Origin: an uncultured Phycisphaerales bacterium | Lineage (GTDB): Bacteria > Planctomycetota > Phycisphaerae > Tepidisphaerales > Tepidisphaeraceae | DNA length: 64,000 bases | Assembly (NCBI GenBank): GCA_963844715.1 | Contig: CAWJPJ010000006.1 | Span: 128,001 to 192,000, forward strand | Direction: 5' to 3' | Shown: in pieces, positions 11,921 to 56,175 of the stretch | Numbering within the stretch: the first letter of the stretch is position 1 | How the letters are laid out: every line of letters begins with the position of its first letter | Made by a program: the position numbers and the translations under genes | Notes under the pieces: generated by a model | What the model saw: the letters and a program-made list of their open reading frames with translations, nothing else | Database searches by the model: none | What the model was told of the DNA's origin: nothing

Positions 11921-11922
11921 AA

Positions 11923-29137: not shown

Positions 29138-29238
29138 AGTTGATCTCCAAAGGCCTGGAAATCGCGCGTCCATGCGGCTTCCCACGCCGACACCTTATCA
29201 TCCCGTCTGTTTTAAAGACAGATACACCCGATCAATGG

Positions 29239-30117: not shown

Positions 30118-30372
30118 AAACAATCTCCCATAAAAGTGTTGCCCTGATTATGCCCACTCTAAAAAGCGGTTGCCAGTTTGCCGCCGGGGGGGCCCAGCGG
30201 CCTTTGGCATGCCGCAATCACTTGCAACTCGCGACTGGAACTATTTTTGGCCTTTGCGGACCACGCCCATCTTTCGTAATCTGAGGTCGCAGACCCGTCA
30301 AAAGGTTTATAATCCCATGTCGTCGCAATCCATTCACCAATGTTCCCCCAGGACACTAAAGCCAGGTGCTAT

Positions 30373-31416
30373 ATGACAGCACAAACGAAACTCGCGGAAG
30401 CGTTGGCCCATTTAAGCCTCGCTACGCGATGCCTGCACGCCGCCGATGAAAGCGGCGGGAACATTGCCAAAAAGTTCGAGCAATTGGGAGTCCCGGACAC
30501 GCCCGAAAATCGCATCGCTTATCGCGGCGCAATGCTTACGACGCCCGGTTACGGCGAAGTGATCGGCGGCACAATCCTCTTCGACGAGACTTTCCGCCAA
30601 TCTTATGAAGGCAGCACGGTCACCCATATCCTGAAACGCCAGGGCGTCGTGATCGGCGTCAAAGTGGACTCCGGCTTGCAATCTTTCGGTGCTTCAAAGA
30701 TCGAGCAGGTCGGAAAGAATGAGTTGCCCGCTCTTCCAAAGCGTATGGAAGAGTATGCCGCGAAGGATGTTCAATTCACCAAATTCAGAGTTGTAGGGAA
30801 TATCGGCCTCGAGAACGGGAGAGCCCTTCCCAGCGATGAATGCCTGGCGGCTAACGCCGCGATGTTGGCCCAGTACGCCGAAATCTGCCACCGCTTCGGC
30901 GTCGTGCCGATCGTCGAGCCGGAAGTGCCGATGGAAGGATCGCATTCCCTGGAGGACTGCCGTCAGGCCACCGAGCGTTTCCTGCTGGCGACTTTCGCAG
31001 CCTTGAGAAAGCGGCAGATTGCCCTGCCGGGAGTTATTTTAAAGACCAATATGGTCCTTTCCGGCCTCGAAGGACCGAAGGCCAACGAGGCTGACTGCGT
31101 TAAGCAAACGATCTTGACTCTCGCGACGACAGTGCCGCCGGATATCGGCGCGGTCGTATTTCTATCGGGGGGTCAAGAGACCGAAGATGCAATGAGGCGG
31201 TTGGAAGCGATACGCATCGCCGCGGCGCAAAGCGGCCTGCCTTTCACCGTCAGCTCGTCCTTCAGCCGTGCCTTGCAGGGCCCCGCGTTGGAAGAATTCG
31301 CCGCCGCGGTGCGAGAGGGCGCGAACGCGGCCGATATCAAAACGCGGACCCAATCCAAATTCGCCGAAGCTCTCAAATTGAACGGGATGGCACTGAGCAA
31401 TTCGGTCAGACATTGA
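30373..31416 (+). CDS. Class I fructose-bisphosphate aldolase
   Basis: AADES, ILFDET, GVKVDSG, VPIVEPEV, ILKTNMV, VFLSGGQ and SFSRALQ. Confidence 0.88.
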   Translation: MTAQTKLAEALAHLSLATRCLHAADESGGNIAKKFEQLGVPDTPENRIAYRGAMLTTPGYGEVIGGTILFDETFRQSYEGSTVTHILKRQGVVIGVKVDSGLQSFGASKIEQVGKNELPALPKRMEEYAAKDVQFTKFRVVGNIGLENGRALPSDECLAANAAMLAQYAEICHRFGVVPIVEPEVPMEGSHSLEDCRQATERFLLATFAALRKRQIALPGVILKTNMVLSGLEGPKANEADCVKQTILTLATTVPPDIGAVVFLSGGQETEDAMRRLEAIRIAAAQSGLPFTVSSSFSRALQGPALEEFAAAVREGANAADIKTRTQSKFAEALKLNGMALSNSVRH

Positions 31417-31556
31417 GGGGATTCGAATCCAAAGCGCTCAATCCCGTCGTCCACGATGCGCAATCTGGCGGACTGAAAACCAATCCGGTAGGATCGCTCG
31501 AATCCTTCGGTGCAACCGGCGAAACCCGCGGTTTTACCGCAGGAAAATTACATAAC

Positions 31557-31640
31557 GGCCTCTTGGCGGAATTGGCAGACGCGATGGACTCAAAATCCAT
31601 TGCCCGAAAGGGCGTATCGGTTCAACTCCGATAGAGGCCA
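31557..31640 (+). tRNA. tRNA-Leu (CAA)
   Basis: Acceptor stem GGCCTCT/AGAGGCC, D arm GGCGGAATTGGCAGACGC, anticodon arm ATGGA-CTCAAAA-TCCAT, long variable arm and T arm. CCA is not encoded. Confidence 0.95.
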
Positions 31641-32897
31641 TCCCCCATCTTGCACGATTTCGCAAGGTGCAGAATCACTCGGAAAAACCGAGTGATTTTT
31701 GTTTGGTGACTGAACGGGTTGCGAAGCATTTCCACCCTTTTCGTGCGGTTGCTGTGCCGGATTCTGTGCCGCGCTGTCCGAAGTCGCTACAGGCGTAGCC
31801 GCTGCCCGGTCGAAATGGGCTTGAGTGACTTGCAGATAGTGGGCCTGGGCGACAGCTTGGGTATTTCCGAGCCACGCGCAAACGACATGGGCCGGAAATG
31901 TCTCGGCAAGCTCGGTCTGACGGCTCGACCGCAGATTGTGGAAAAGCTTCGGCCACGGCTCGATGCCAGCCCGACTGATTATCCGTTTGAAATGTGTCCG
32001 CAAATTCTGTTTGCCGTCCCTGTATCGCGTAATGACATGCTCATCCCCTGGCGCCGCCGCCTCGAACGCCTCCATTAGCGGCCCCCGCAGCTCAGGAAAT
32101 AGCGGAATATACCGGCTCGCCCGGCCTTCGATATGCTCGGTCTTAGGCGATGGCACGCGGATGCGATTTCGATCCCACTCTACATCAGCCCAAGTCAACG
32201 CCAATGTTTCAGACGGGCAGCGAACGCCTCCATAGCGGCTCAGCGCTACGATCACCCGCCACTGGCAGTCTGGGCATGCCTCAATTACCGCGTCCGCCAT
32301 TTTGCGAGTCACAAAAAACTGCCTGGCTGGATTGCTGCGAACGTTGGATTCAAGGCCTGTAAACGGATTCTCGCGGATCATCCGCTTACGGACCGCGAAT
32401 CGAAAGAATTGTTTCGCCCGACCGCAGAGCCGGCGCGCCGTATTCACGGATAATTTGCCCAAGAGATATCGGCGATATTCCTCCGCATCGCCTTCTGTAA
32501 TGTCGCCCAACGGCTTGTTCTCGCCGAAGAATGCGACAAGATTCCGGCGCACCTGTCCCAAACCGATCCGCGTGTTCGGCTTAATGTCGGATCGCCCTGC
32601 GATATATGCGTCAATAAACGCGCCGAGTGCCAAGGCGCCCGAAGATTTCCGCGGCTTCGTTAATCCGACAGCCGCAAGCCGCGCGTGCATCAGGTCATCC
32701 AGTCCGGCCAGCCACCGCGAAACCTCATCGTCAATTGAGCCGGTGATTCCCTGTGCAATCAGCGATTCCACCTTGACTTTGAACGACTCGGCCTGGCGCT
32801 GGGACACCTTGCCCAGCCGAATCGTCTTGCGCGTGCCGTCGCCGGCAATGAAAAGGATTCGCCGCCTGCCATTTCCATCTGAACCGATGCTTGCCAT
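31590..32897 (-). CDS. Tyrosine recombinase (phage-type integrase)
   Basis: Catalytic motifs GGVRCPSE, KTEH, FHNLRSS and WLGNTQAVAQAHY; abuts the tRNA. Confidence 0.92.
   Translation of the reverse strand: MASIGSDGNGRRRILFIAGDGTRKTIRLGKVSQRQAESFKVKVESLIAQGITGSIDDEVSRWLAGLDDLMHARLAAVGLTKPRKSSGALALGAFIDAYIAGRSDIKPNTRIGLGQVRRNLVAFFGENKPLGDITEGDAEEYRRYLLGKLSVNTARRLCGRAKQFFRFAVRKRMIRENPFTGLESNVRSNPARQFFVTRKMADAVIEACPDCQWRVIVALSRYGGVRCPSETLALTWADVEWDRNRIRVPSPKTEHIEGRASRYIPLFPELRGPLMEAFEAAAPGDEHVITRYRDGKQNLRTHFKRIISRAGIEPWPKLFHNLRSSRQTELAETFPAHVVCAWLGNTQAVAQAHYLQVTQAHFDRAAATPVATSDSAAQNPAQQPHEKGGNASQPVQSPNKNHSVFPSDSAPCEIVQDGGWPLSELNRYALSGNGF
31628..31641 (+). repeat. att core (left), within the tRNA 3' end
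   Basis: CCGATAGAGGCCAT. Confidence 0.9.
31752..31775. repeat. Putative integrase arm-type site (left)
   Basis: CTGTGCCGGATTCTGTGCCGCGCT, exactly repeated at 47250-47273; contains tandem CTGTGCCG. Confidence 0.7.
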
Positions 32898-32913
32898 AAC
32901 TCACCTGTCTCTT

Positions 32914-33177
32914 TCAATTGCTCGAAGTATCGCGCACTGTTGATACCGTTCCGTTCTTCCCGCGTCCATCCAAATCATCGCTCTGACGATTTTCATGTTG
33001 CGCGATGACGGTGCGAAGCGTTTCCATTGAATATCGAACCGATTTGCCAAGCCGGACGCACGGAACAACTCCTTCACGTGTGAGTGTCCATAAAGTTCGT
33101 GAAGAGATCGACAGCAGCTTGGCCGCTTCATCCGGCTTGATCAGCAGTGACGGCGGAGATGACGTGTGAGACACCAT
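32914..33177 (-). CDS. Excisionase-like helix-turn-helix protein
   Basis: LLIKPDEAAKLLSISSRTLWTL...VPCVRLGKSVRY, directly upstream of the integrase. Confidence 0.85.
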   Translation of the reverse strand: MVSHTSSPPSLLIKPDEAAKLLSISSRTLWTLTREGVVPCVRLGKSVRYSMETLRTVIAQHENRQSDDLDGRGKNGTVSTVRDTSSN

Positions 33178-33307
33178 GGGCATAACCATCGCCTGTTCGG
33201 CGAATGTTATAGTCGATATAAAAAAAGTCAACTGGTAAGTTATGCTGGACAGCGAATCGAGAATCCGCTGCCTTTGTCGTTATGGCCCTCTGCGGTAAAA
33301 TGGTCGT

Positions 33308-33559
33308 ATGCCAAGCCCAAAATCATCAGTCAGGTCAGCCAAGAGTCCCGAGAAGCCCAAGACGATCCAGCGGACCTACCGCTTTGACACAAAGTTGTTT
33401 GAAGCTTTCGAGGACGACTGCGCCACTCATCTCGCCAACCCCAAGCGCGTCATTGAAGCGCTAATCCTGTATTGGCTGGACGCCGACGCCGACGAACGCG
33501 CGGCGATGGCCCACAAACATCGGGAACGGATTGGCTCTGGATCGCGGGAAGAAGATTAA
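33308..33559 (+). CDS. Small ribbon-helix-helix-like regulator
   Basis: KTIQRTYRFDTKLFEAFEDDC...NPKRVIEALI; divergent from xis-int. Confidence 0.6.
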   Translation: MPSPKSSVRSAKSPEKPKTIQRTYRFDTKLFEAFEDDCATHLANPKRVIEALILYWLDADADERAAMAHKHRERIGSGSREED

Positions 33560-33757
33560 TTTTTCGGCGGCACAGACTTTTCCGCACCCACCTCATGGCG
33601 GACGGCTTCACGCGGACGGGGCGGCGGTCAATCTGGATCGCCCGGAGGGATTTTCCCGCGCAGCGGGAGGGAGATTGACGGCCGCCCGGGCCGCGTACAA
33701 TCGAGCCACGAGGTGGGGGCGGGATTTCGGACTTCGGTTCAGGAATTTACTACAGGT

Positions 33758-34753
33758 TCACGCTGCTCCGCCCATCAAGCGATCCAACGGACTGGTCACC
33801 GCAATCGCCGGTTTATTCATCACGTGCGTATAGATCATCGTCGTCTCCAGGCGCTGATGGCCCAGAAGTGTTTGTACTTGTCTGATGTCATAGCCGGATT
33901 CCAGCAAATGGGTGGCAAAACTGTGCCGAAACGTGTGCGGCGTCACTCGCTTGCCAATTTGCGCTCGGATCGTCGCTTGTTTGACCGTTCGGGACAGGAC
34001 GCCGGGGTGCGCGTGCCAGCGATACCCTTTGCCCGATTCGTCCCTTCGCAACGTGATGCTCGGAAACAAGAATTGCCATCGCCAGTCGTCCTCAGCATAG
34101 GGGCATTTGTTCTGTAAGACAGCCGGCAACGGCACGTATCCACCGCCGTGGGCCAGGTCGCGCTCGTGTCGCCGGCGCGCCCGCCGTGCCTGTTCCACCA
34201 GCCGGCTTCGCAGCGACAGTGGCAACATGACGATCCGGTCTTTATCCCCTTTGCCCGAGTGAATCAAAATCTGCTGCCGATCAAAATCCACGTCGCGCAA
34301 GCGCAACGTGCAGCATTCCATCACGCGCAGCCCCGTGCCATACATCAATTCCACCATCAGCCGATGCATCGACTGGGGCCGCATGATTTCAATGAGTTGC
34401 TGCACTTCATGCTGGCTTAACACCGCCGGAAGCCGCACCGGCCGGCGCGAACGCTCGGCGGCGAACCGCCCCAGGTGATCCGGCTCCACTTCATCCGCCA
34501 ACACTTGCTTATACAGAAACACAATCGCGTTAACCGCCTGGTTCTGACTGGACGCGCTCAATTGCCGGTCGCGTGCCAGCGCGGTCAAAAATGCTTCCAC
34601 CTCCACCGTCCCCAGCTCCGCCGGATGTCGCCAATGACCTTCCCGGCAATGATACGCCAAAAACTCACGTACCCACCGGCGATAACATTCGATGGTAGAG
34701 GCGGCCAAATGCTTGCGAGTTCCCACGTCGCTTACCCGATCCAAAAGCTTCAT
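33758..34753 (-). CDS. intI: Integron integrase
   Basis: SASSQNQAVNAIVFLY, YGTGLRVME, GKGDKDR, the integron-specific insertion (GYVPLP...WRWQFLFPS), HTFRHSFATHLL and LLGHQRLETTMIYTHV. Confidence 0.95.
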   Translation of the reverse strand: MKLLDRVSDVGTRKHLAASTIECYRRWVREFLAYHCREGHWRHPAELGTVEVEAFLTALARDRQLSASSQNQAVNAIVFLYKQVLADEVEPDHLGRFAAERSRRPVRLPAVLSQHEVQQLIEIMRPQSMHRLMVELMYGTGLRVMECCTLRLRDVDFDRQQILIHSGKGDKDRIVMLPLSLRSRLVEQARRARRRHERDLAHGGGYVPLPAVLQNKCPYAEDDWRWQFLFPSITLRRDESGKGYRWHAHPGVLSRTVKQATIRAQIGKRVTPHTFRHSFATHLLESGYDIRQVQTLLGHQRLETTMIYTHVMNKPAIAVTSPLDRLMGGAA

Positions 34754-34763
34754 ATATTGTCCT

Positions 34764-34834
34764 AACCTAGCGCAAGAAACCGTGGTGTCAATATTTCCGA
34801 GGTTTGTTGACAGGCGTGAAACAATTGGCAAAAT
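34764..34834. promoter_or_regulatory. Candidate back-to-back Pint and Pc promoters
   Basis: Minus strand TTGACA(34791-34786)-16-TAGGTT towards intI. Plus strand TTGACA(34807-34812)-16-CAAAAT, with a TG extension, towards the cassettes. Confidence 0.5.
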
Positions 34835-34893
34835 CAGACAAGCGTGGATGGCTGCAAAGAGTGTTCTTTGTACCATTGCGCGAGAGAATCATA

Positions 34894-34900
34894 GTTATAC
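34894..34900 (+). other. attI crossover core (GTTATAC)
   Basis: GTTATACGGCAG is the exact reverse complement of CTGCCGTATAAC at the end of cassette 1. Confidence 0.8.
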
Positions 34901-34910
34901 GGCAGAAAAC

Positions 34911-35162
34911 ATGACGCCCGCCGACGAAGGAGAAATGCACCGTCTCTGCAAGTTGCTCGGCACCGTCGACAAGACGCTGCCGACCTCTTCACCGCTCCGA
35001 GAGGCGCTCGAGAAGGCTGCCTTCGCCATCCAGGCCTCATTCATTCATGGCCATAGGAATTGGGTGGAAAGCATGTACACTGCGCTGCACGACCCGAATA
35101 CGGAACTGTCAGCTGAGCATCGGGCACATCTCGTTAGCCTCGGTATCGACCCCGACGCGTGA
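34911..35162 (+). CDS. Integron cassette 1, hypothetical protein
   Basis: ORF MTPADEGEMHRLCKLL... fills the space between attI and attC1. Confidence 0.8.
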   Translation: MTPADEGEMHRLCKLLGTVDKTLPTSSPLREALEKAAFAIQASFIHGHRNWVESMYTALHDPNTELSAEHRAHLVSLGIDPDA

Positions 35163-35172
35163 CGCGGCTGCC

Positions 35173-35282
35173 GTATAACCAGCCGCTGCTGTGGACCGGC
35201 CCGCGTCGCGGCGGTATGCTCTTCTAGTCCTTGTGCCTGCACGCGCGTCGCGTTGCCGGCCACAGAGCGTCGTCCGTTATCC
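35173..35282 (+). repeat. attC site 1
   Basis: GTATAAC...GTTATCC, 110-bp imperfect palindrome. Confidence 0.9.
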
Positions 35283-35294
35283 GCCGCAGCAACC

Positions 35295-35630
35295 GTGGCA
35301 ACAATCGTCATCCAACTCGATCCAGCGCTCCTCGCGAATCCGGATGCCGACATTCGCTACAAGCTTCCCGACCTCCTCGCGCAACGGTCGGCGAACCGGG
35401 TTTCTAGCGACGGATACGATTACGTCGGCGAGCGAAATCTGCTCCATTTGTTTCTCGGAACCGACAACGCTGAACGCGATCTGCCTGGCATTATCGAGGT
35501 GCTCAAGTCTGAACGGCTTCTAGGCAATGATCTTTCGCAGGTTCCGATCGCTTTCGAAGATGGCGATGCCCTTCGTGTAGTCTATCCGCCCGGTTTCACA
35601 GGCGTCTTCGAGCAGTCGGGCGGCGGATAA
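35295..35630 (+). CDS. Integron cassette 2, hypothetical protein
   Basis: GTG start (ATIVIQLDPALLANPDADIRY); its TAA stop lies inside the attC2 TAAC. Confidence 0.8.
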   Translation: MATIVIQLDPALLANPDADIRYKLPDLLAQRSANRVSSDGYDYVGERNLLHLFLGTDNAERDLPGIIEVLKSERLLGNDLSQVPIAFEDGDALRVVYPPGFTGVFEQSGGG

Positions 35631-35733
35631 CCAGCCGTTGCTGTGGACGGGCCCGCGTCGCGAATATATTCTCTTTTAATCTGGCGGTTGTCAGCGCGTC
35701 GCGTTGCCCGCCACAGAACGTCATCCGTTATCC
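35625..35733 (+). repeat. attC site 2
   Basis: GGATAAC...GTTATCC, 109 bp. Confidence 0.9.
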
Positions 35734-35737
35734 GCCC

Positions 35738-36034
35738 ATGACGCAGTCTGACTACTTAAGCATGCCGCAGAACCAGCCCCACCTACGGGTAATGGCCGTT
35801 CTCCGTCGCTGGGATCCGATCGGTGTTATCTCCGACGCGAACCAGGACGAATACGACAGCTATTCAGTAGAAATAGTTCACATGCTTGATCGCGGTGCGT
35901 CGGTGGATGACATTGTTGCATACATGAAGCGGGCGGTAACCGATCACATGGGCATGAGTTTTTTCGACGAGCCGCACAGCCGCGATTGCGCGGAAGAGTT
36001 GGTCAACTACTGGCGGTCCCTAAAGGGCGGATAA
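35738..36034 (+). CDS. Integron cassette 3, DUF1871-like protein
   Basis: WDPIGV...DEYDSY motif. Confidence 0.75.
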   Translation: MTQSDYLSMPQNQPHLRVMAVLRRWDPIGVISDANQDEYDSYSVEIVHMLDRGASVDDIVAYMKRAVTDHMGMSFFDEPHSRDCAEELVNYWRSLKGG

Positions 36035-36138
36035 CCAGCCGTTGCTGTGGACGGGCCCGCGTCGCGTCGATAGTCTTTCTTTCATCTGGCGGTTGTCAGC
36101 GCGTCGCGTTGCCCGCCACAGAACGTCATCCGTTATGC
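36029..36138 (+). repeat. attC site 3
   Basis: GGATAAC...GTTATGC, 110 bp, close to attC2 in sequence. Confidence 0.9.
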
Positions 36139-36141
36139 AAC

Positions 36142-36405
36142 ATGACACGCACCTCGGACGAACTTGAGTTCTACTACAACGGAGAGCCGGTGGGCTACTT
36201 CCAGGAAAACGCTTTTCCGTCGGGTCCATGCCGAGCGAGGTATATGCCCTATCGCGGTTCGGGCCATTATCACATGTCCACAGATCTGCGGTCCGGGATC
36301 AAACCACGGTGTACCAGCCCCACGTTCTCATTTTCCGTGTTGGCTTGTCCAGAGTATGGCGTGTTAGAACTCGCTGACTTCACAGCGGTCGGGAATGTTG
36401 CATAA
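36142..36405 (+). CDS. Integron cassette 4, hypothetical protein
   Basis: MTRTSDELEFYYNGEPVGYF...RYMPYRGSGHY; stop in attC4. Confidence 0.8.
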   Translation: MTRTSDELEFYYNGEPVGYFQENAFPSGPCRARYMPYRGSGHYHMSTDLRSGIKPRCTSPTFSFSVLACPEYGVLELADFTAVGNVA

Positions 36406-36509
36406 CCAGCCAATGCTGTGGACGGCCCCGCGTCGCGTCGAAAGTTTGTCTTTGGTATAGTGTTCCTCGGCGCGTCGCGTTGGCCGCCACAGATTGTCAT
36501 CCGTTATTC
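36400..36509 (+). repeat. attC site 4
   Basis: GCATAAC...GTTATTC, 110 bp. Confidence 0.9.
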
Positions 36510-36531
36510 GGCCTTAAGAATCGGAGCACCG

Positions 36532-36702
36532 GTGAGCGCTTCTCGAAAAAAACTTTGCGTTCTGGCGGCATGTTCATTCGCTGTCGTCGGCGCCATCGAG
36601 TTAGTTCGAAGCCAGTTGGTTGGCGGCTTGTGTACCCTCTTGCTTGCGTTAGTTTTTCTTTTGCTCGTATATACGCCGGGGCAACACGATCAGGCCGAAT
36701 AA
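36532..36702 (+). CDS. Integron cassette 5, small two-helix membrane protein
   Basis: GTG start after GGAG; two hydrophobic segments; stop in attC5. Confidence 0.65.
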   Translation: MSASRKKLCVLAACSFAVVGAIELVRSQLVGGLCTLLLALVFLLLVYTPGQHDQAE

Positions 36703-36806
36703 CCAGCCGCTGCTGTGGACCGGCCCGCGTCGCGTCTGTATGCTGTTCTACTCCTGGGCCCGCCGCGCGCGTCGCGTTGCCGGCCACAGAGCGTCGTCCG
36801 TTATGC
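36697..36806 (+). repeat. attC site 5
   Basis: GAATAAC...GTTATGC, 110 bp, close to attC1 in sequence. Confidence 0.9.
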
Positions 36807-37246
36807 CTCGCATCACCGACACCCTCGCACGGGCGGGCAGCGATTGGAAGGCGTTCGAGGCCCCGCTTGACGCCGACGTGATCGCGGAGGCGCTCGTCCT
36901 TATCGCCCGACCGCTCCCCACCGGCCTGATCGAGCTCTATCACAGCTGCAACGGAGGCGAGGGATCGCTGCCGGTTCAGCCGCTGAACTTCGTCCTCTGG
37001 AACCTCGAATTGGTCGTCCAGACCCGCGAGGATCAGCACTACCGCAAGTATTACGACCAATTTGTCTTCTTCGGCACCAACGGTGGCGGCGAGTATTTTG
37101 GAGTTGACCCGCCAGGGCGCGTCTTCTTCATGGATCCGGTAGCGGGCGAGGAAAGTATTGCCATTGTGGCGGCGACGTTCGATGAGTTCGCGGCGCTCGT
37201 CGGCACTCCCCCGCCGGAAGAGTTTCCGCCGCCCGGCGAGGCATAA
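36803..37246 (+). CDS. Integron cassette 6, SMI1/KNR4 (SUKH) family protein
   Basis: LPTGLIELYHSCNGGEG, FGTNGGGEYFGVD and VAATFDEF. Confidence 0.85.
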   Translation: MPRITDTLARAGSDWKAFEAPLDADVIAEALVLIARPLPTGLIELYHSCNGGEGSLPVQPLNFVLWNLELVVQTREDQHYRKYYDQFVFFGTNGGGEYFGVDPPGRVFFMDPVAGEESIAIVAATFDEFAALVGTPPPEEFPPPGEA

Positions 37247-37350
37247 CCAGCCAATGCTGTGGACGGCCCCGCGTCGCGTTGAAAACTTGTCTTTGGTATA
37301 GTGTTCCTCGGCGCGTCGCGTTGGCCGCCACAGATTGTCATCCGTTATGC
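37241..37350 (+). repeat. attC site 6
   Basis: GCATAAC...GTTATGC, 110 bp, nearly identical to attC4. Confidence 0.9.
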
Positions 37351-37427
37351 GGCGCGAGGCCACCAACATGCGAATCGTTCAGAAAGCGGCGTTTCTCGCG
37401 GCGATCTGCTGGATGACGGCCACCTTT

Positions 37428-38240
37428 TCAAACCACAACGGTCACACGTAAGAAAGTGGCGGGAATGATCGTGGCGTTCTTATTCGGGCTCTTGTTGTGC
37501 TGCTCGAACAGAGTCTCCAATTCCTTTTGGAGATCGGCCGCTCGACCTTTCTGGCCGGCCGCATCGAATGCATTCATGGTCGGTCCGTAGTATTTTCGGA
37601 AATCATCAACATACGCGGCCGGACTGCTGGCAGAATTGAATGTAAAGGTGTCCCGGACGCACGAAACCTTTTCTTTGGGAACTCCCGCAGCTGCGAATCG
37701 CTCCACGACATGGCTCTCAACGCCCCAGGTCATGGGGCTGACGAAGCCTTCCGGCGGCGGCGGGATGTAGGCGGAACTGATCCTCAAAATCTGCGACACC
37801 AGCGTTGGATCGTTCGGAATCCAATTTCCCATGACAATTCGCCCCCCGGGACGCGTCACTCGCACCATTTCCCTTGTCACATCAAACGGTTTGGGCGCAA
37901 ACATCGCTCCAAAAATGCTGACGACGAGGTCAAAGGAATGATCCTTCAACTCGTGTAAATGGGTTGCATCCCCTTCTTGAAACCGGCAGTTGGCCAGACC
38001 GTGCTTCTTGGCGCGCTGGTTTCCAGCCGCGACGAGATTGCTGGCAATGTCAACGCCCAACACGTCTGCACCGAGCTTTGCCTCCGGCAAAGCGGTCGTT
38101 CCGTCGCCGCATCCGAGATCCAGAACCTTGAGCCCTTTTACGATTCCCAGCTGCTGGACAAAGGCTTCGCCGCTTTCCCTCATGCTCTGGGCAATGCGCG
38201 TAAAGTCGCCTTTTTCCCAAAGTGCTTTATTTGGATTCAT
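37428..38240 (-). CDS. Class I SAM-dependent methyltransferase
   Basis: VLDLGCGDG, FDLVVSIFGAMFAP and RVTRPGGRI. Confidence 0.9.
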   Translation of the reverse strand: MNPNKALWEKGDFTRIAQSMRESGEAFVQQLGIVKGLKVLDLGCGDGTTALPEAKLGADVLGVDIASNLVAAGNQRAKKHGLANCRFQEGDATHLHELKDHSFDLVVSIFGAMFAPKPFDVTREMVRVTRPGGRIVMGNWIPNDPTLVSQILRISSAYIPPPPEGFVSPMTWGVESHVVERFAAAGVPKEKVSCVRDTFTFNSASSPAAYVDDFRKYYGPTMNAFDAAGQKGRAADLQKELETLFEQHNKSPNKNATIIPATFLRVTVVV

Positions 38241-38312
38241 AGAAGCCGTTACCTTTGCTTTTGGCTCGGAACGAATGGAACGTTATTGAAGATCATAATC
38301 ATTGCCTTGCAA

Positions 38313-38828
38313 TTATCTATCAGACAGGCTGGTAGGATCAATTGCCGGGGCCTCTACCGTCGAATGCCTTCGCACTGAAGCACCATCGTACTGCGATTTT
38401 CCGGGTGGTTTAGGCGATTCCTGCGTCGGCGCCGGGTCCATTACGGATCGCCGGTTACGGCGATTGGTCGCCAGCGCATCCAGGAAAATTTCAAATCGGT
38501 TGGCGGCGCTGGCCCACGCTGCATCCTTGTGTTCCGGCCTGACCGCCGGCGTGTGGCGAAGGAACGTGCGCACAAACATCGCCAACATCTCCCGGACCAG
38601 CTCATGCTGTGTCTGTTGATCCTCGTGCATCTTCACCAGCCGATTGAAGCAGCGATCCATGGCTTTGAGCAATGTTTGCTCCTGCTTCTCCCGGTATTCA
38701 GACATCAGCGCTTGGCGGGCCGCATCCACAACGACTGAGCCAAGGGACGATCTGGTTAGCGAAGCCTGCACCTTGATGACCTTGAGCAACTCGTCGTCTA
38801 GCCGGATTGTGAGGGGATACTTGTCCAT
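38313..38828 (-). CDS. CopG/RHH-family protein of conjugative elements
   Basis: LTIRLDDELL...SLGSVVVDAARQAL and EMLAMFVRTFLRHTP; translationally coupled to the relaxase. Confidence 0.7.
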   Translation of the reverse strand: MDKYPLTIRLDDELLKVIKVQASLTRSSLGSVVVDAARQALMSEYREKQEQTLLKAMDRCFNRLVKMHEDQQTQHELVREMLAMFVRTFLRHTPAVRPEHKDAAWASAANRFEIFLDALATNRRNRRSVMDPAPTQESPKPPGKSQYDGASVRRHSTVEAPAIDPTSLSDR

Positions 38829-40369
38829 CAAAGTTCCTGGCCCATGTCCAAATCGCGACCCTGTTCCAACGTGACATTGTTCACGTCCGTCATTCCGGCT
38901 AGCCGCCTCCCGGTCTGCTTGCTTGCCCATGAACTTCTCGAAGTCGGCAACATCAACTTCATAGTCGCCGCCCTCGGCATGGGTGATTCCGGTGCCGGGC
39001 TTGCTGGGCCCATGACTCAACCAAACGCTCGGCCTTGTCCGCCATGTCGCGCGCCCGATCCGATGTCACGTCATCGCCGGCGCGGTCGAGCAGGTTGTCG
39101 AGATGCCTGGTCGGGGAGTAAATCCCGTCGTTGGCTTTGGCCTGCTCGACGATCTCCTGCGCAATCTCCCGGCGCTCCTGCGCCGCTCGGCCAAGCTCCG
39201 CCACGTTCCCGATGCTCAAGGATTGATACGCCTCGCCGTCCTGGACGCGCGCATAGCGCATCGCTCCGGCCTCCTCCCGGATGACAACAAAGCGCCGGTC
39301 GGTGATCTCATCGATCCGCCCCAAGGCGACCACTTCACCAGATACGGCCTGGGTAATCGGCTCCCTCGACACATACATGGACTGGTTCCCCAGGTGTCCG
39401 TATAGCTGCTTAATGATGTCATGGTGCGCGCCAAGGTCCATCAACTGCTGCTTGAAGTCGGGTTCAAGCTGCCACTTGGTTCCCTGAATCTTCTCGGCCA
39501 GTTCCATGCTTTCCAGCCATTGCAGGCGCGCAATCACCAGCGGCCTGTCGGACCTTCTCCAGCCGATCTGGACATCAGGCGACACGTCGATGACGTGCTT
39601 CTCGTCCATGTTGCGCTCGATGGTCCGGTCCAATGATGTGAACCGCTCCGCCTGCACTTCCTTCTCTCGGGCCTGCTCCATCTCCCTTTCTGTGCGCTCC
39701 CCAAGCAGGTCGGTTGCCGCCTCGGACGCCCTTTGCCGGATGCCGTAACCGATGTATTCCCGGCGCAGGATCAGGTCTTGACCCTGTTCGTCCTTGCCCC
39801 GGAACAGGATGTGCGCGTGCGGATTGTCGGTGTTGTGGTGCTCAATCGCGATCCAGTCTAGCTTAGTGCCGACATCGCGCTCGATGCGCTGCATCACGTC
39901 ACGCACATAGGCGCGCATGTCGGCGATCTCATACCCCTTCTCCGGCGACAGGATGAGTCGGAAGTGGTGCCGATCCTCCTCCCATTCCCGTGTCACGGAT
40001 CGACCATCCAACTTGTCTTGCTGTGCATCGAAGAACGTGCCGCGCTCCCCATCCTTGCTGGCGCTGTCGCGGGCAAGGTAGCCCGTATGGCGCGCAAGCC
40101 CGCTGCCAGACCTGCGCGAATGGAAGCGGGATAGCATCTTGACCGTCGCCCGTTGTGCGCGGATTGCTGCCGAAAGGCATGGTCCCGCGCCCCTGAACCC
40201 GCCTCGGCGCGCGCCATCTGCGCATCTTGGTGCGCCAGAACCCTCGCCCGAGCCGCATAGCGATCTCCCCGTTGACGCTCCGCTCGCGCCCTCTGCGCCC
40301 GCCTGTGCGCCCGATACGATCCGAATCAACGCCGTCTCTTGAATTCGACCGACTTACACGTTTTGCCAT
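38828..40369 (-). CDS. VirD2-like (MOBP) relaxase, DUF3363-type (frameshifted)
   Basis: HTGYLARD, DRHHFRLILSPE, LDWIAIEHHNTDNPHAHIL and AERFTSLDR. Confidence 0.88.
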
Positions 40370-40442
40370 GACACCGCTCCCGAAGTTGAAAGCCAGCAAT
40401 CACTTACGCCTCCAACGCTGACAAACCCACTTGCCAAAATGC

Positions 40443-40511
40443 GGGTGATTCGCCAGAAGTGGTTGTAATTGCTACAGATACGAAACACCTGAATCACCCC
40501 TTTATCTTGCA
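40443..40511 (+). promoter_or_regulatory. Candidate oriT
   Basis: Inverted repeat GGGTGATTC/GAATCACCC next to TTTATCTTGC (resembles the MOBP nic motif YATCCTG), upstream of the relaxase. Confidence 0.5.
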
Positions 40512-40724
40512 TTCCACTTTCAATATATAAATCTTACCGTTCAAACCCATTGCTATGCTCAAAGGCGATTATACCTAACGGGAGCCTAACGTCAAGTGGG
40601 GGGGAATTCATGGTGACATTGACGTCACAAATCGGCATGAACAGACAAGTTTTGGTCGTTGATGAAGAGCTAAGCGTTGGCTGAACTGCTTTGACGATAT
40701 GCCTGCATTGAGGTCGTGGCGGAC

Positions 40725-41686
40725 TTAAAGAAGCTCTTGAAGTTCCACCAAACGGGCCAGCACTTCCGCCCATGACGGGTATGGTCCATAGCACAACATC
40801 CGGCATTGTGCCTCATACTCGGCACCGATGATCGCGGCCAATTCGACGGGCGGGAACAGGGCATCACTGCGCGAGAAACGCATGTCGTTGGGGTAAAAAT
40901 AGCTCTTGGGGAAGTGCGTGCGGCTGATTTTGTCGTAGTCGGTCTTAATGATTTCGTACTCGTCAGACCGCAACATGGCCATCACATCGGGTTGAGCCGA
41001 CAGTTGGAATAGGTCGTAATAATGGCGCGCATAGCTGCCGATTGGTTGCCGGTCGCGCTTGAGCAACTCCACCTTACTGTGAATGGCGAACATTTTCTCA
41101 ACAAACGTCCGCCGGAAGTGGAGCAATCGGAGCGGAAATTGACCCTCGTCTTCCGCCCCAGCGACAAGCCTTTTTCTTCCAGAAACCGACCGACATAGGA
41201 CTGCAACTCAACAATCGTTGTTGGTTCTCGCCCGCTGGCTGTACCAGACTCGACAAGCACTCGATTGGCAACTTCACCAGGACCGCCAAAGCGTTGTGTG
41301 TAAGAGAACCGGTCGCTGCGCCCGAATCCCCCGATCTTTTTGCTCTCGTTATCGACGAACGTCAGCGCCGGATGCGCGCCGATTGCGTCCCGCAGTTGCT
41401 TTAGTTCCCGGTCAATCCCCCGCTTGCCAAGCGCTGGCTCGAATGCTGTGGGATCTAAGAAGATATCGATGTCCTCGGAAAATCGTTGGATCAGGTTCCA
41501 CCCTTTGGCCAGGCTGGTGCCGCCCTTGAAGGTGACTTTGTCGCCAGCGGTGATGGCAATGATCCGCAGGGCTTCGGTGACGTAGTAATCTTTTTCGACG
41601 ATGGCTGGGCGCAGTCCTCGGTCGCGGAAATACTCCGTCGCTTGGATGATCGCCTGCTCGAAATCGGCATGTTCAAACAGCCTCAT
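40725..41686 (-). CDS. AbiEii/AbiGii nucleotidyltransferase toxin (frameshift ~41150)
   Basis: VEKDYYV, FKGGTSLAKG, IQRFSEDID and ARHYYDL. Confidence 0.88.
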
Positions 41687-41687
41687 G

Positions 41688-42435
41688 TCAACGGCGCTCC
41701 TTGGCCTGCCATTGGCGAGCGTATTTCAATCCAGCCAACATGCCAAAGTCGAACCGGGAAAATGGATTCAGCGATTCCCGCAACCGCAGTAGTGCTGCTG
41801 GGTTCTTTCCAAGCTGCTGTCCGATGGCGCCCAACATCGCGCGAACTCGTGGGGGTTCTGAATCCGCCACGTTCAGTAAGCGCTCGAACCGGACTTGTTC
41901 GGATGCCAGCGTCAAAGTTCGACGGACTGTATCTGCCGGCGATAGCTCGCTTGCCTTTCCGCGTTGGCGCAGGAAATCAAGCAACGCCGCGTCGGTTTTG
42001 GAAAGATTGGCCCAAGCTTCCGGTCGCCGGCTATGGATTACGGTATTGGCGCCAATCAGCTTTCTGGGCAGACTGATGCGCACTGGTGGCAACCTCGCTG
42101 TGTGCCGCAATCTGTGTCGTGAATCCCAGGAGATTGGCGGCGGCAAGCCCTGATGGATAAACCTTTGTGCGCGTCGCTGCGAGGGTTTGCATTGCGGCCG
42201 GATTTGGCCGGCTCTTTCCCAAGGCGGTTTGTCGGTGGCGGTAATAGACACCTTTGCTCAATCGCTCAAGCATTCCCTTACGCGTCAATCGGGACAGGGC
42301 CTGTGCCGCAGCGGCAAACGGAAGATCCCGGAAATCGTCCAATCGCCATACTCGTTCGCCTCCACGCTCAATCCGTTGCCGAATGGCGGTGGCTGCGCCC
42401 TTTGAACCGATTGCGGCGGTGGGGAATGACTCCAT
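41688..42435 (-). CDS. AbiEi-like (DUF6088-type) antitoxin (frameshift ~42075)
   Basis: QALSRLTRKGMLERLSKGVYY and SGLAAANLLGFTTQ; directly upstream of the AbiEii gene. Confidence 0.8.
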
Positions 42436-42526
42436 GCACAAAATATCGGCATTCCGCATCTGAATGTCAAGTTTTATTGCGATAAAACTCGACATATTTG
42501 CATTCACCACCACATTCAATTAGAGC

Positions 42527-42555
42527 TTGACAATGGTTTAGTTTATATGTACAAT
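42527..42555 (+). promoter_or_regulatory. Near-consensus sigma70 promoter
   Basis: TTGACA-17-TACAAT with TG extension. Confidence 0.7.
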
Positions 42556-42561
42556 ATGAAA

Positions 42562-43206
42562 ATGAAATGGAATGAGGCAACACGTTTGTTGGAAGATTGT
42601 GAGCGGAGCCTACGTAAGCTGGTGGCTGAAGCGGCAGGAGAGGGAGACTATCTCGGCGTACAAAAGATCAATGATCTCGCAAAGGCAATTGCCGCCTTAG
42701 CAGCCGAGGGCCGCTCGACGCCTGATCCCACCCTAATGCCATTAATGCCATCCGCGAACATGGATTCCAAGAACGGAACCGTTAACCACTCCGCATCTGT
42801 CGCTGCAACGAAAGTTGGTATGCGCAAGGCGCGGCCATCGGTTGATGTGTATCCGAAATTCTTCCGACGAGGCGATGAATTGGTGAAGGTCGGCTGGTCC
42901 AAGAAGGACCGCAAAGAATACAACCATCGCGCCCCTCGTGGGGCCGTCGATGCGGCGGCTGCTGCCGTCAGACTAATTGGCGCGAAGGGGAAAATGTTTA
43001 ATGGCGATGCGCTGCTACCGCTCAAAGATCCGACCGCCAGCTCCGCCATCCCTGATTACCAGGCATATGTGGCCTTAGCATGGTTGAAGCATCTGGGCGT
43101 GGTCGAGCAGCATGGACGCCGCTCCGGATACACCTTGGTCCCTGAGAAACAGATCGACAGCACAATCACTGCGGCTTGGCCAGAACTGGCAGAATGGCGC
43201 GGGTAA
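42562..43206 (+). CDS. Hypothetical protein, first gene of four-gene module
   Basis: Intact ORF (YPKFFRRGDELVKVGWSKK; YQAYVALAWL). Start chosen from the promoter position. Confidence 0.8.
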   Translation: MKWNEATRLLEDCERSLRKLVAEAAGEGDYLGVQKINDLAKAIAALAAEGRSTPDPTLMPLMPSANMDSKNGTVNHSASVAATKVGMRKARPSVDVYPKFFRRGDELVKVGWSKKDRKEYNHRAPRGAVDAAAAAVRLIGAKGKMFNGDALLPLKDPTASSAIPDYQAYVALAWLKHLGVVEQHGRRSGYTLVPEKQIDSTITAAWPELAEWRG

Positions 43207-43270
43207 TAGCTAATACGCAACGAGAGAGAACCCGGCTTATATTTCTCCCGGGGGAAAGCGAAAGTGGGCA

Positions 43271-45207
43271 ATGAGCACAGAATGGCAGTTTTATCTTCAA
43301 CAGCCAACCGATCCGATCCATAACCCAATCTCGGGCGAGTTTTTCTCGACCGAGGCGGTGGGAAACGTGACCGAGGCGCTAATCCGCGAAGGTATCCAGA
43401 ACACGCTTGACGCGCGGAAGAAGAAGGCAGACGGATCACGGCACCCGGCCAGCGCGAGGATTTTCCTGTCTGGCACTGAAGGCGCCCTGTCCGCAAACCG
43501 CGCCCGTCGCTGGTTCGGGACCCTCTGGCCTCATGTAATGGCATCCGGCAATGGCCTGCGGAATCAACCGGCCGCTGACGAATCATGTCCGTTCCTCGTG
43601 TTCGAGGATTTCGGCACCATCGGTCTGACCGGCAATCCACAAGAACACCAAGTCGTTGATGGCGTCGCCAACCACTTCCTCAATTTTTATCGTGCTGAGG
43701 GACACTCAGATAAGGGCGAGCAGGATCGTGGAAGCTGGGGTGTCGGCAAGACGGTCTTTCCACGCGCCAGCCGTATCAGCAGTTACATCGGCTTGACCGT
43801 GCGCAGCGACGATGACAAGCATCTCCTACTGGGGCGATCGATCCTCAAGTATCACCGTATCAACGGAAAGTCATGCAAATCGGATGGCTACTTTGGCGTG
43901 CAACGGCAGAACGACAACTTCATGCTGCCTACAGATGATCCTGGCACACTCGCGGAATTCTGCTGCGACTTCAAGCTCAAGCGGCAAAACGAGAGTGGGT
44001 TGTCCATTGCGGTACCTTGGTATGAGATCAACGGCGACGATGGCATGACCGTCGACAAGGTGATCGCGGCGGTGCTTCGTGGTTTTTTCCATCCGATCCT
44101 GATGGGCCACCTTGCGGTCACCATTGCCACGCCGGAAGAGGAAATCGCGCTACACGCCGATAATATTTTGCACAAGTCGAATCTATTGGCGGTAGTCTCG
44201 CGCTGGAACTGTTGCCGGTAATCAAACTGGCTGAATGGGCACAAACCCGTATGCCAGCCGAGTTCCGTTCGCTGGTCGCGCCGCTCAACGACCGCGCCCA
44301 AAGCTGGTCGGCAGATTTGGTGCCGCCCGATTTGGTCAAACATATCCGCCAGTCCCTAGCCGCGCGGCAACCCGTGGCTCTCAGAGTACCCATGTCCGTT
44401 GAGTTGCGCACAAGTGGTCCACAACCAACGTTTTTTAATGTCTTCGTCGAATATAGCCAAGAAGATAGTGAGAAGCCGGTATTCATTCGCGACGAACTCA
44501 TCATTTCCGACGTGAAATCGCCTCGTATCTCACAAGTCCGTTCCCTCGTGATCGTGGACGATGGTCCCCTAGCCACCTTATTGCGAGATGCTGAGACGCC
44601 CGCGCACACCCAATGGAACCAGGGTACGAGTAAATTCAAGGACAAGTACAAGTTCGGCCCTGGTGTGATCAACTTTGTGCGCTTGAGCGTGTTAGAGTTA
44701 CTGCGCATCATCAATCAGGCGGAACAACAGCCTGATCCGACAATCACCATCGACTTTTTTTCTGTCCCTGCTCCGCCGGACGAAGAGGACGCGGTACTCG
44801 GCCGGCGGCGTAGGCCCCGTCAAACTCCCGGAACCGGGCCGACACCACCACCACCGCTTCCGCCAGCCCGGCCACACCGCTTCCGTATTGACAAACTGCG
44901 TGGCGGGTTCTCCATCCGCTCTGGCGATCCCGATGCGGCGCTTCCGCCCATCATCGACATCCGTGTCGCCTACGACGTGCGCCGCGGCAACCCGCTACGG
45001 AAGTACCATCAATCCGACTTCGACTTAGGCCACTCTCCAATCCGGTATGACACACAAATGAGCGGAGTAGCTGTCAAAAGCGCGAGCGGCAACCGAATGC
45101 TGGTCGCGGTGAAGCAAGCCGGATTCAACCTGGATGTGACAGGGTTCGACCCTGACCGTGACCTCTATGTTAAGGCCGAAGTGAAGGAGGCCGCTGATGT
45201 CGATTAG
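43271..45207 (+). CDS. GHKL-type ATPase domain protein (frameshift ~44180)
   Basis: LIREGIQNTLDA (N box), EDFGTIGL (G1) and RGSWGVGK (G2); continues in ORF 44212-45207. Confidence 0.75.
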
Positions 45208-45979
45208 ACGTATCAACTCTACCGGGCGCAAGAAAATCATGCGCGAGGATGCACGGATCTTCGTGCGACCAAATTCCGACGGCGCACTAATTTTCGATGC
45301 CATACTCGACCTAACCGATTACGGCCTACCCGATGATGCACAGGTATTTGTAGAGGCATATCGTCAAACAACCTTCATGCGATTCTCGCACGGAACCATC
45401 GCGGCACCTCAGCCGCCGTGCGATTTGGCACGCCGGCTCACTGAGTTCGCCAGTCGCGATGGGCTGCTGTTCCGCGTCAGGGTGACCTCAATGGACAACC
45501 CTGCTGGCGTGCTGCTCGCTGAGGGAGACCAAATCCCCATCAGTGACGACGAGGAGCAGCCGGACAAACGCATCGCTTTGTTGCCGCCCGCCCCTGGCGA
45601 ACTGGGTCAGGAAATGTGGCGCGTCGACCTGACTGGCGCAAACGGTCCGCTGTTGTTGGTAAACAATCGTGTCAGTGACTGGAAAGCCGTCGCCGCCTCG
45701 CCACTATTCCGTTCGCTGGTATACCCGGCCGCTATGCGACACGTGCTGTGGCACATTTACAAGGTGGAAGAGACGCGCGCCATGGACGATGCCGACGACT
45801 GGCGATGCCGCTGGTTGGCGTTCGCCGCAGCACTGCCAGGCGCAGGCAATCCTCCCCTGACGAGTGATGATGACGACGATTGGGGCGAGTGGATCACCAC
45901 TGCTGTTGAATCCTTCGCCCGCCAGCACAAGATGCTCGATCACTACACAGCATTCCTCGCAACGGAGGTTTCGGCATGA
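45197..45979 (+). CDS. Hypothetical protein
   Basis: Intact 260-aa ORF with GGAGG RBS; overlaps both neighbours. Confidence 0.85.
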   Translation: MSIRRINSTGRKKIMREDARIFVRPNSDGALIFDAILDLTDYGLPDDAQVFVEAYRQTTFMRFSHGTIAAPQPPCDLARRLTEFASRDGLLFRVRVTSMDNPAGVLLAEGDQIPISDDEEQPDKRIALLPPAPGELGQEMWRVDLTGANGPLLLVNNRVSDWKAVAASPLFRSLVYPAAMRHVLWHIYKVEETRAMDDADDWRCRWLAFAAALPGAGNPPLTSDDDDDWGEWITTAVESFARQHKMLDHYTAFLATEVSA

Positions 45980-46707
45980 GGCTCCAACGTTTTAACGATG
46001 AAGGTATCAACCGTTTCGGCCAGTTTCTGGACGCGCTGTCGGTGGATCCCACGATAGCTGTGCCCACTGATCTACTTACCGACGGGGCCTGCGCAGTCCC
46101 CGTTCCACCAAGTCCTGAAGTTCATATGCGGCAATTTGCTAGCCGGTTGGAAGCAGCCCGTTACCTGGATGGCGTCTTGTCGGAAGTTACCGGAAGTGAT
46201 ATTGAGCGCGATGCCGGCCTGTGGGCATGGCTCAGCCTCTTCTACTTTGATCAACTGTGCCCCCCTGATGGTCGGGGCCATCGGAAGCCCGGTGAGCGTG
46301 CGCGATGGATACCAGCCGTCGACGAGGCCCGTCGCTATTATCGGCATTTGCTCGCGGGCGCATATCGCGTTTACCGTGCCCATCACGACAACCCAGAGAG
46401 GGCGATGATACTGCTCCATTCCCCGCTCGCGCGAACTGGACACTTCTGGTATCAATTGGCTTCGCGCCAGGAGTTGGTTACGAATGGCGCGATTATGGAC
46501 GCTGCGACAGAACTCTATTTGGGGCAGCGCGGCACGAAGCCGAAGCGCGGAGCCACAAGTGAGATTCCAGGCAGCGTCTTTCGGTTCGCGGCGGTCCTAA
46601 ATCAGTTGGATACGGTGTGGGATCTGTACGCTATGAAGAAACAAGATATCCTGAATCTGCTCCCTGACGAATTTGATCGTTTTCGGGAGGAACCGTCGCT
46701 CATTTGA
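45976..46707 (+). CDS. Hypothetical protein
   Basis: Intact 243-aa ORF with ATGA coupling (GLWAWLSLFYFDQLCP, RRYYRHLL). Confidence 0.85.
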   Translation: MRLQRFNDEGINRFGQFLDALSVDPTIAVPTDLLTDGACAVPVPPSPEVHMRQFASRLEAARYLDGVLSEVTGSDIERDAGLWAWLSLFYFDQLCPPDGRGHRKPGERARWIPAVDEARRYYRHLLAGAYRVYRAHHDNPERAMILLHSPLARTGHFWYQLASRQELVTNGAIMDAATELYLGQRGTKPKRGATSEIPGSVFRFAAVLNQLDTVWDLYAMKKQDILNLLPDEFDRFREEPSLI

Positions 46708-47249: not shown

Positions 47250-47273
47250 CTGTGCCGGATTCTGTGCCGCGCT
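47250..47273. repeat. Putative integrase arm-type site (right)
   Basis: Exact 24-bp copy of 31752-31775. Confidence 0.7.
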
Positions 47274-47321
47274 TACATGAGATTTGTGGTTTTCCCGAAG
47301 GAATTCGAGTAGTGTTCGACC

Positions 47322-47335
47322 CCGATAGAGGCCAT
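47322..47335 (+). repeat. att core (right), duplicated tRNA 3' end
   Basis: CCGATAGAGGCCAT, preceded by T-loop-like GTTCGACC. Confidence 0.9.
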
Positions 47336-47396
47336 TCGATAACCCGGGCGGGCGATGGTGAATCGATCATCGGTTTAATCTACACTTCCCTCCGCT

Positions 47397-49219: not shown

Positions 49220-49235
49220 TTCGCCTGCGCCTCCC

Positions 49236-50278: not shown

Positions 50279-50316
50279 TAATCCCCGCCCCAGCCGACCC
50301 TCAATCAATCTCAAGC

Positions 50317-56162: not shown

Positions 56163-56175
56163 TGAAAGGAATCCC

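Follow-up and report, generated by a model that had tools for sequence, protein, structure and literature searches.

A complete integron in the cargo slot of a planctomycete tRNA-Leu island, likely of an undescribed mobile-integron class that spreads without a transposon

How does a complete integron with no recognised resistance gene come to lie inside a tRNA-integrated element of a planctomycete, and does it travel with that element? The question is raised by a 64,000-nt stretch of DNA (hereafter the window; G000:C6:128001-192000) from an uncultured Phycisphaerales bacterium of the family Tepidisphaeraceae, whose genome (G000) comprises 4.55 Mb in 8 contigs and is 85% complete. The mobile integrons known so far fall into five classes from Proteobacteria, most of them linked to transposons and laden with resistance genes. 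An earlier reading of this locus without database searches (the sequence-only reading) had proposed that an environmental integron was mobilised here by an integrative element, and cross-genus copies of the integron together with an integron-free allele of its carrier bear this out. We conclude, with a probability of about 0.78, that a complete integron occupies the cargo slot of a tRNA-Leu element and spreads as a mobile-integron class through excision and helper-dependent mobilization of its carrier. Directly observed are the anatomy of the element, the integron-free allele, recent identity across genera, total turnover of the cassettes, and the presence of the integron on two backbones with different integrases and tRNA targets.

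The integron itself (Table 1) has the parts that the sequence-only reading had described, and the intact intI, the attI and the six cassettes with attC sites were each confirmed. In addition to a family-model score well over the cut-off, the IntI catalytic residues R143, K168, H273, R276, H299 and Y308 were located in the expected motifs. The attI core was fixed by the end of identity with two genomes of other genera, G034 and G150 (at 34897 and 34898), and the identity of a contig from short-read run X11 also ends at this GTT core. Consensus matches of the candidate promoter type number four in the region, with 1.9 expected. The six attC sites, 109-110 bp long with AAC...GTT boxes and situated next to intI, fall below the threshold of >19 (or 10) for sedentary integrons, and their bottom strands fold as attC-type hairpins (z-scores -1.9 to -5.5); no shuffled sequence of 200 folded as well for five of the six, and 9 of 200 did for the fifth site. 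An attC profile of the whole genome found 13 sites, the six in the window and seven on contig C5. Among the window cassettes only cassette 6 has a Pfam match and none was matched by PADLOC; no resistance gene was recognised in the cassettes by these two resources, a dedicated resistance-gene library not having been searched. Disjoint arrays, a duplicated cassette in G150 and a ratio of nonsynonymous to synonymous divergence (dN/dS) of ~0.1 are indirect signs that IntI may be active in recombination.

The element that carries the integron measures 15.7 kb, with a G+C content of 57% that is near the flank value. Its terminal att repeats, exact over 14 bp and extended to 22 bp with 2 mismatches, are short (chance expectation ~0.002 within 30 kb), and the same right end and the same att repeat are found in G150 and in a further genome, G154, where homology ends at the repeat. 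The placement of the integron between att repeats, as the sequence-only reading had it, holds. That reading had also credited the element with its own integrase, xis and relaxase genes; all three are present, the relaxase gene being split by frameshifts in the assembly. With an integrase and terminal att repeats at a tRNA gene, and with no mating-pair or coupling-protein genes among its open reading frames (ORFs), the element has the make-up of an integrative mobilizable element. In an Rfam search over 30000-48000 the tRNA was the only match.

The same element was found without the integron. In G154 (genus g18) it occupies tRNA-Leu(CAA), aligns to window 31465-33728 (90.9%) and 38405-40602 (88.0%) with ~105 bp between, and matches the window at its right end up to the att repeat. 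The intervening 4.7 kb of the window is therefore an insert in a cargo slot, which lies between an 83-aa gene with its adjoining stem-loop and the relaxase module. Among 14 fetched loci with the 83-aa gene and a close relaxase, two carry this integron (window and G150), one has an array without intI and 11 have no attC match; across the 141 family genomes, the relaxase module occurs in 8 and the 83-aa gene in 26 (a tally that includes the unpublished G004). The array without intI belongs to a sister island in the source genome (G000:C5:364543-384240) at tRNA-Ser(CGA) with a 60-bp repeat, where seven degenerate attC sites fill the same slot; its intI may have been lost, or its cassettes may have been loaded in trans. 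Contigs C1 and C3 of the same genome bear further sister islands, which have no array. A congener, G002 (95% complete), has at 3.8 kb after tRNA-Leu the genes that in G000 are 32 kb further downstream, and in the 55 kb fetched there was no match to any protein of the element; the tblastx synteny screen is noisy, and only its long matches were used. In G002 the 5' half of tRNA-Leu(CAA) is also repeated 33 kb upstream (G002:C17:10558-10613 and 43375-43558), which suggests a further element with the opposite half of this tRNA gene as its site.

IntI was found in 27 of 141 family genomes, with at least 97% identity in three of them (the source genome; G150, 98%; G034, 97%) and 50-72% in the other 24. 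G034 held the only equally close IntI in a 401-genome sample of the class, an all-species genome scan returned two near-identical records among the matches listed, and a metagenome scan that returned at least 80 loci gave no IntI above 74% identity among the matches listed. The gene was not found in either of two congeners (90% and 95% complete), and scans of IMG/VR with IntI and the 83-aa protein gave no relative. At the nucleotide level intI is 97.1% identical to the window in G150 and 95.3% in G034, with core-gene identities in the same genomes of 78-80% for recA, 69-74% for gyrB and 81-86% for rpoB. Synonymous divergence (dS) of intI is 0.095 (G150) and 0.172 (G034), compared with 1.41-1.62 for recA and 1.5 to saturated for gyrB. 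The 90% protein cluster of this IntI has 29 members, 14 others of which are listed at 95-98%; the other 119 listed clusters have 1-6 members, and the next best match is at 74% among the matches listed. Such a tight cluster with so distant a next relative is the signature of a mobile-integron class. An IntI phylogeny, proposed in the sequence-only reading, was built as a quick tree of 68 rows with SH-aLRT as its branch support, in which these sequences form a star-like clade (SH-aLRT 100, stem 0.21, tips <=0.017) nested among the IntIs of the family. From this nesting, the source would be an integron resident in planctomycetes.

The surroundings of these copies differ. In G150 the integron sits in the same tRNA-Leu element with different cassettes, an integrase 96% identical in amino acids and a 17-bp repeat, and most of the relaxase is deleted; this answers the question of whether the element occurs with other cassette arrays. 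In G034 its carrier is 27 kb long, has a perfect 46-bp repeat of tRNA-Ser(TGA) at its two ends, contains a different integrase, helix-turn-helix (HTH)/AlpA-like genes, a Prim-Pol primase and an MmeI-type restriction-modification gene, and has no relaxase match. The arrays hold 6, 6 and 10 attC sites and have no cassette ORF in common, one cassette being duplicated within G150. In all three genomes with context the integron thus lies inside a mobile element and has a short array (<=10 attC), and it was found only inside integrative elements, never at the locus of a relative outside one. Low IntI diversity across distant hosts is the operational mark of mobile integrons. We therefore consider this likely to be an undescribed resistance-free mobile-integron class that spreads without a transposon, as judged from near-identical copies with entirely different genes in two other genera. 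Among 160 IntI loci from two collection scans (many short, and among the matches listed), the 83-aa gene occurred only at the two near-identical ones, and at 20 other IntI loci of relatives with Pfam matches the genes behind intI are varied housekeeping or signalling genes.

Three further observations concern these relatives. On contig C5 of G150 a glyoxalase cassette is broken up by a transposase gene, and a second insertion separates two copies of the 83-aa gene; the two are presumably IS630-like and IS66-like. The genome with the tRNA-Ser element also has another intI (65%), which is broken and accompanied by three attC sites (G034:C1:4333815). A record labelled Methylococcaceae has an IntI (64%) that nests among planctomycete IntIs, from mis-binning or transfer.

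Short reads from other studies contain both forms of the carrier. Seven of 20 listed runs were compared, all as contigs, from soil, bog and peat metagenomes of different studies; run X1 is possibly the source sample and was not counted as independent. The list contained no RNA data set, which has no bearing on expression. The X11 contig covers 33627-34898 at ~96% and continues in other sequence after attI, a contig from X18 bridges the stem-loop and intI (33658-34691), contigs from X9 and X18 leave the window at 33728-9, and in a contig from X8 positions 33724 and 38408 are linked through 1179 nt of other sequence. The carrier with and without the integron block is therefore present in contigs of other soil and peat studies. 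The junctions between the small gene, intI and attI, which could have been assembly chimeras, recur in two other genomes and in these contigs.

The sequence-only reading had further described the attC array as homogeneous and taken this as a mark of sedentary origin. The window sites are indeed the most alike of 11 arrays compared, yet they form three subtypes with pairwise identities of 77-96% and a mean of 83% (in this table sites without settable ends were dropped: 2/7 for C5, 1/10 for G034, and 1/3, 1/11, 2/19 and 1/7 for other arrays). The second part of the claim fails: arrays behind the same intI are mixed, with mean identities of 70% in G034 and 74% in G150, and the subtypes recur elsewhere, with sites up to 94% identical to those of the window in a family integron whose IntI is at 68%. 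Homogeneity is for these reasons no marker of sedentary origin here, and the planctomycete origin of the integron rests on the IntI tree instead. The likeness of the sites reflects a family-wide cassette pool, with which taxon-specific attC homology (PMC8352920) is in line, and the result agrees with a continuum between mobile and sedentary integrons (10.1101/030866).

The left junction of the block lies 30 bp behind the intI stop codon and is the same to the base in the window, G150 and G034, and a single capture event is therefore inferred. This event would have placed the intI-attI block of a resident planctomycete integron beside the stem-loop of the island. The stem-loop belongs to the island backbone (z-score -8.5), with compensatory changes in 13 of 47 pairs that mostly split two lineages (4 versus 7 rows) and so amount to few independent events; it lies upstream of the 83-aa gene in Ser-type islands and downstream in Leu-type islands, has no Rfam match, and could be an RNA or a single-strand origin. 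The 83-aa gene is a mosaic. In G034 its quarters 2-3 are 97-98% identical to the Ser-type and quarter 4 is nearer the Leu-type (89% vs 76-81%), with the stem-loop on the Leu-type side only, and in the window quarter 3 is 100% identical to its own C5 sister and 81% to G154. This mosaic structure points to homologous exchange between island backbones, and it is fairly probable that the block, once captured, passed among co-resident backbones through homologous recombination within this common gene. Its 83-aa product matched nothing in Pfam, NCBIfam or Foldseek, a wide search reached a best Z of 4.7, and the predicted model is modest (pLDDT 73, pTM 0.40); a ribbon-helix-helix fold is no more than a guess from its pattern. 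A Tn402-like carrier was rejected: there is no transposase family among the element ORFs, the junction zones have no repeat longer than 10 bp in common, nor was a terminal inverted or direct repeat or a target repeat found there. In a separate family genome, G074, three 1.44-kb modules of intI and an attC-like site (G074:C3:107839, C9:37796 and C9:161879) are 99.4-99.8% identical, differ in cassettes and flanks and end within the last intI codons, by either intragenomic copying of the integron platform or gene conversion.

For transfer between cells, the relaxase-bearing form of the island would excise by its own integrase and xis, be nicked by its relaxase at the origin of transfer (oriT), and use the TraG and Trb proteins of a co-resident integrative conjugative element (ICE), a route that is fairly probable. 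The relaxase matches PF03432, PF11843 and NF041267. In the last of these (RlxS) the window protein scores 295 bits and the intact C5 copy 298 bits, with model positions 27-429 of 654 matched, so that neither reaches the curated cut-off of 850. The frameshifts are small indels at repeats and are likely sequencing errors, because short-read contigs lack them, rpoB and recA of this indel-rich assembly are split too, and the C5 copy is intact; pseudogenisation was rejected in view of the split core genes. The candidate oriT carries the motif TATCTTGC, found in 8 of 8 islands compared, and we presume a likeness to the MOBP nick consensus. Contig C8 holds matches to a related relaxase, TraG, TrbE, TrbF and VirB3, and mobilization in trans by these genes may be proposed. 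IntI in each new host would then load cassettes from the attC pool of the family, and the array without intI in the sister island could likewise be its substrate in trans.

Several points weigh against this account. The mechanism of the first capture left no readable trace, full genomic context comes from three genomes only, and no excised circle and no attP or attB joint was found in the seven runs, for which contigs only were used. The window relaxase is frameshifted in the assembly, and error is favoured there without the intact gene being proven. The island relaxase is only 47-49% identical to that of the C8 ICE and shorter, and the candidate helper is known from its relaxase, TraG, TrbE, TrbF and VirB3 matches. 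In G150 most of the relaxase is deleted and the G034 element has a primase and no relaxase match; conjugation therefore cannot be the whole story.

Of the other explanations, carriage by phage particles between genera, through a satellite-like island or transduction, is unlikely but the least so. The G034 element, with its integrase, HTH/AlpA-like genes, Prim-Pol primase and lack of a relaxase match, speaks for it, and a phage route can hold for G034 alone without displacing helper-dependent mobilization of the relaxase-bearing islands. The window and G150 elements instead have a relaxase module and a conserved oriT-like motif, conjugation genes are co-resident, and the IMG/VR contigs hold no relative of IntI or the 83-aa protein. 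Slightly less probable still is repeated entry of the integron block into islands by an unrecognised insertion mechanism of its own, in which the stem-loop would be the site of action of either IntI or a recombinase of the host, rather than homologous exchange. The junction does lie a few bases from a conserved stem-loop, and the three G074 modules, near-identical and each ending at the 3' end of intI in a different place, indicate that intI blocks can be copied in the family. An identical junction in all three genomes, however, looks like one event, islands without an integron ordinarily have the stem-loop too, the identity steps in the 83-aa gene fit crossovers, and no inverted or direct repeat above 10 bp links the junction zones.

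Very improbable is a single uptake of a sedentary chromosomal integron by an island that is now dead, followed by vertical inheritance only. The high likeness of the window attC sites (mean 83%, the highest of 11 arrays) and the several island genes split in the assembly would suit such a history, which is already contradicted by a cross-genus intI dS about ten times below that of core genes; moreover, the integron was found in neither congener, and G034 has a different tRNA and integrase. An assembly chimera or a mis-binned contig is scarcely credible. The assembly is rich in indels and no single short-read contig spans the element, but the same order recurs in G150 and G034 at 3-7% divergence with other cassettes and in the X11 and X18 contigs, and the element lies within a 1.26-Mb contig with tRNA-Leu synteny to a congener.

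Table 1. Features of the integron-bearing element (window coordinates)
Feature	Coordinates	Strand	Remarks
tRNA-Leu(CAA), integration target	31557..31640	+	
Element tyrosine integrase	31590..32897	-	R226, K252, H320, R323, Y354; 96-97% aa vs G150/G154 copies
attL core, tRNA 3' end	31620..31641	+	exact 14 bp at 31628-31641
xis-like HTH_17 gene	32914..33231	-	TIGR01764 28.1 bits, slightly below 28.8 cut-off
83-aa gene, likely left crossover zone, mosaic	33308..33559	+	common to this island family and Trb-type ICEs
141-bp stem-loop of island backbone	33582..33722	.	also in integron-free islands
4.7-kb block absent from integron-free allele (~105 bp there)	33729..38404	.	G154 alignment; X8 joint 33724-38408
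intI, integron integrase, 331 aa	33758..34753	-	TIGR02249 370 bits vs cut-off 265
Candidate cassette promoter Pc	34807..34834	+	10/12 consensus bases; consensus match only
attI, crossover G/TT at 34894/34895	34860..34900	+	end of identity with G034, G150
Cassette 1	34895..35282	+	83-aa ORF 34911-35162, attC 35173-35282
Cassette 2	35283..35733	+	111-aa ORF 35295-35630, attC 35625-35733
Cassette 3	35734..36138	+	98-aa ORF 35738-36034, attC 36029-36138
Cassette 4	36139..36509	+	87-aa ORF 36142-36405, attC 36400-36509
Cassette 5	36510..36806	+	56-aa hydrophobic ORF 36532-36702, attC 36697-36806
Cassette 6	36807..37350	+	SMI1/KNR4 (SUKH) immunity-type ORF 36803-37246, attC 37241-37350
Short ORF start without attC behind, likely a truncated seventh cassette	37368..37451	+	runs into methyltransferase 3' end
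Class I S-adenosylmethionine (SAM) methyltransferase, not a cassette	37428..38240	-	80% aa paralogue on contig C8
171-aa gene after relaxase	38313..38828	-	30-35% vs gene behind traG in the genome's ICEs
RlxS-like (DUF3363) relaxase	38828..40369	-	split by frameshifts in assembly; intact 546-aa copy (87.5% nt) on C5
Candidate oriT nick motif TATCTTGC	40503..40510	+	upstream of relaxase; in 8/8 islands compared
AbiEi/AbiEii type IV toxin-antitoxin pair	40725..42519	-	both genes split in assembly
Cargo operon, genes without assigned function	42547..46707	+	43271-44221 matches PADLOC PDC-M33A, E 1.8e-17
attR core	47314..47335	+	exact 14 bp at 47322-47335

Other parts of the window and genome provide context. 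The first long gene of the cargo operon, split in the assembly, is the one with the PDC-M33A match and makes the operon a candidate defence system; for two of the cargo genes, a 440-kb contig from elsewhere contains close relatives. The element is flanked by paralogous Ysc84-family genes (28457-29185 and 49236-50009; 77% over 277 nt), and an aldolase gene at 30340-31416 has an 82% nt copy that adjoins ICE genes on C8. About 16 kb past attR (47336-63700) has no counterpart in the congener, where it is lacking from the interval that separates tRNA-Leu from the syntenic genes, and is perhaps an older island. At the other end, window 1-14000 has five paralogous blocks at intervals of ~2 kb, in which repeats are spaced by 102 nt and the GC skew is strong; the 34-residue period suggests tetratricopeptide repeat proteins. 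Elsewhere on the same contig, 24 tRNA genes are packed in 3.4 kb (G000:C6:952626-956065).

Integrons inside integrative elements have precedent, and comparison with known systems defines what is particular here. Reviews list five mobile classes (PMC8618304, PMC9024848), and these (also 10.1101/030866) resemble the present integron in low IntI diversity across distant hosts, short arrays and location on mobile DNA. Here, by contrast, the IntI is unrelated (not near-identical to any class 1-5 reference, at most 46% identical to plasmid-borne IntIs, 45% identical to IntI3 and <60% to all of the best 5000 plasmid records), the hosts lie outside Proteobacteria, no transposon is involved, and the cassettes mostly lack an assigned function. 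In SXT/R391 ICEs a class 4 integron occupies hotspot 3, likewise a variable position within the backbone of an integrative conjugative element; that carrier is a self-transmissible Vibrio ICE with dfrA1 (PMC6743048), as against helper-dependent and primase-bearing islands of Planctomycetota with 6-10 cassettes, no recognised resistance gene and an unrelated IntI. Salmonella genomic island 1 (SGI1) with In104 is likewise an integrative mobilizable element with a variable-cassette integron and a definable integron-free backbone; In104 is a class 1 structure that has inverted repeats of 25 bp and a target repeat of 5 bp (PMC6414798), and no such ends or transposase were found here. The Shewanella integrases SonIntIA and SveIntIA are environmental intI genes >93% identical in other genera and illustrate a chromosomal-to-mobile transition as cassette-less In0 on plasmids beside insertion sequence elements (PMC9229058); the present case differs in complete integrons, array turnover, site-specific islands and an empty allele in hand. 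Environmental class 1 integrons without Tn402 features in Betaproteobacteria share the absence of resistance genes and transposon and the environmental hosts, and the relevant passage names no carrier (PMC3575428), which is identified here.

No planctomycete mobile integron or similar integron-bearing island appeared in the titles and abstracts of the full-text literature searched (mostly non-subscription, supplementary tables aside). Taken together, the chances are slightly better than even that this is a further mobile-integron class, the first outside Proteobacteria in that literature, which evolved in soils and peat without antibiotic selection, whose transposon-free intI-attI module is exchanged through homologous recombination among islands of the conjugative-hitchhiker and the satellite-like kind, and which ferries cassettes between the resident integrons of the whole planctomycete family. 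According to a 2024 survey of plasmids in planctomycetes, no report of conjugation inside the phylum existed, and a complete mating-pair system was not found in chromosomes (10.1101/2024.01.22.576637); the islands described here offer genomic evidence for recent transfer of the conjugation type within Planctomycetota. The signature of mobile integrons, near-identical intI in distant hosts with fast cassette turnover, is now seen in an unrelated phylum. With the empty and the loaded carrier both available, the system may serve as a natural model for two processes: the mobilisation of an integron in the absence of both a transposon and drug selection, and the exchange of chromosomal cassette pools from one genus to another.

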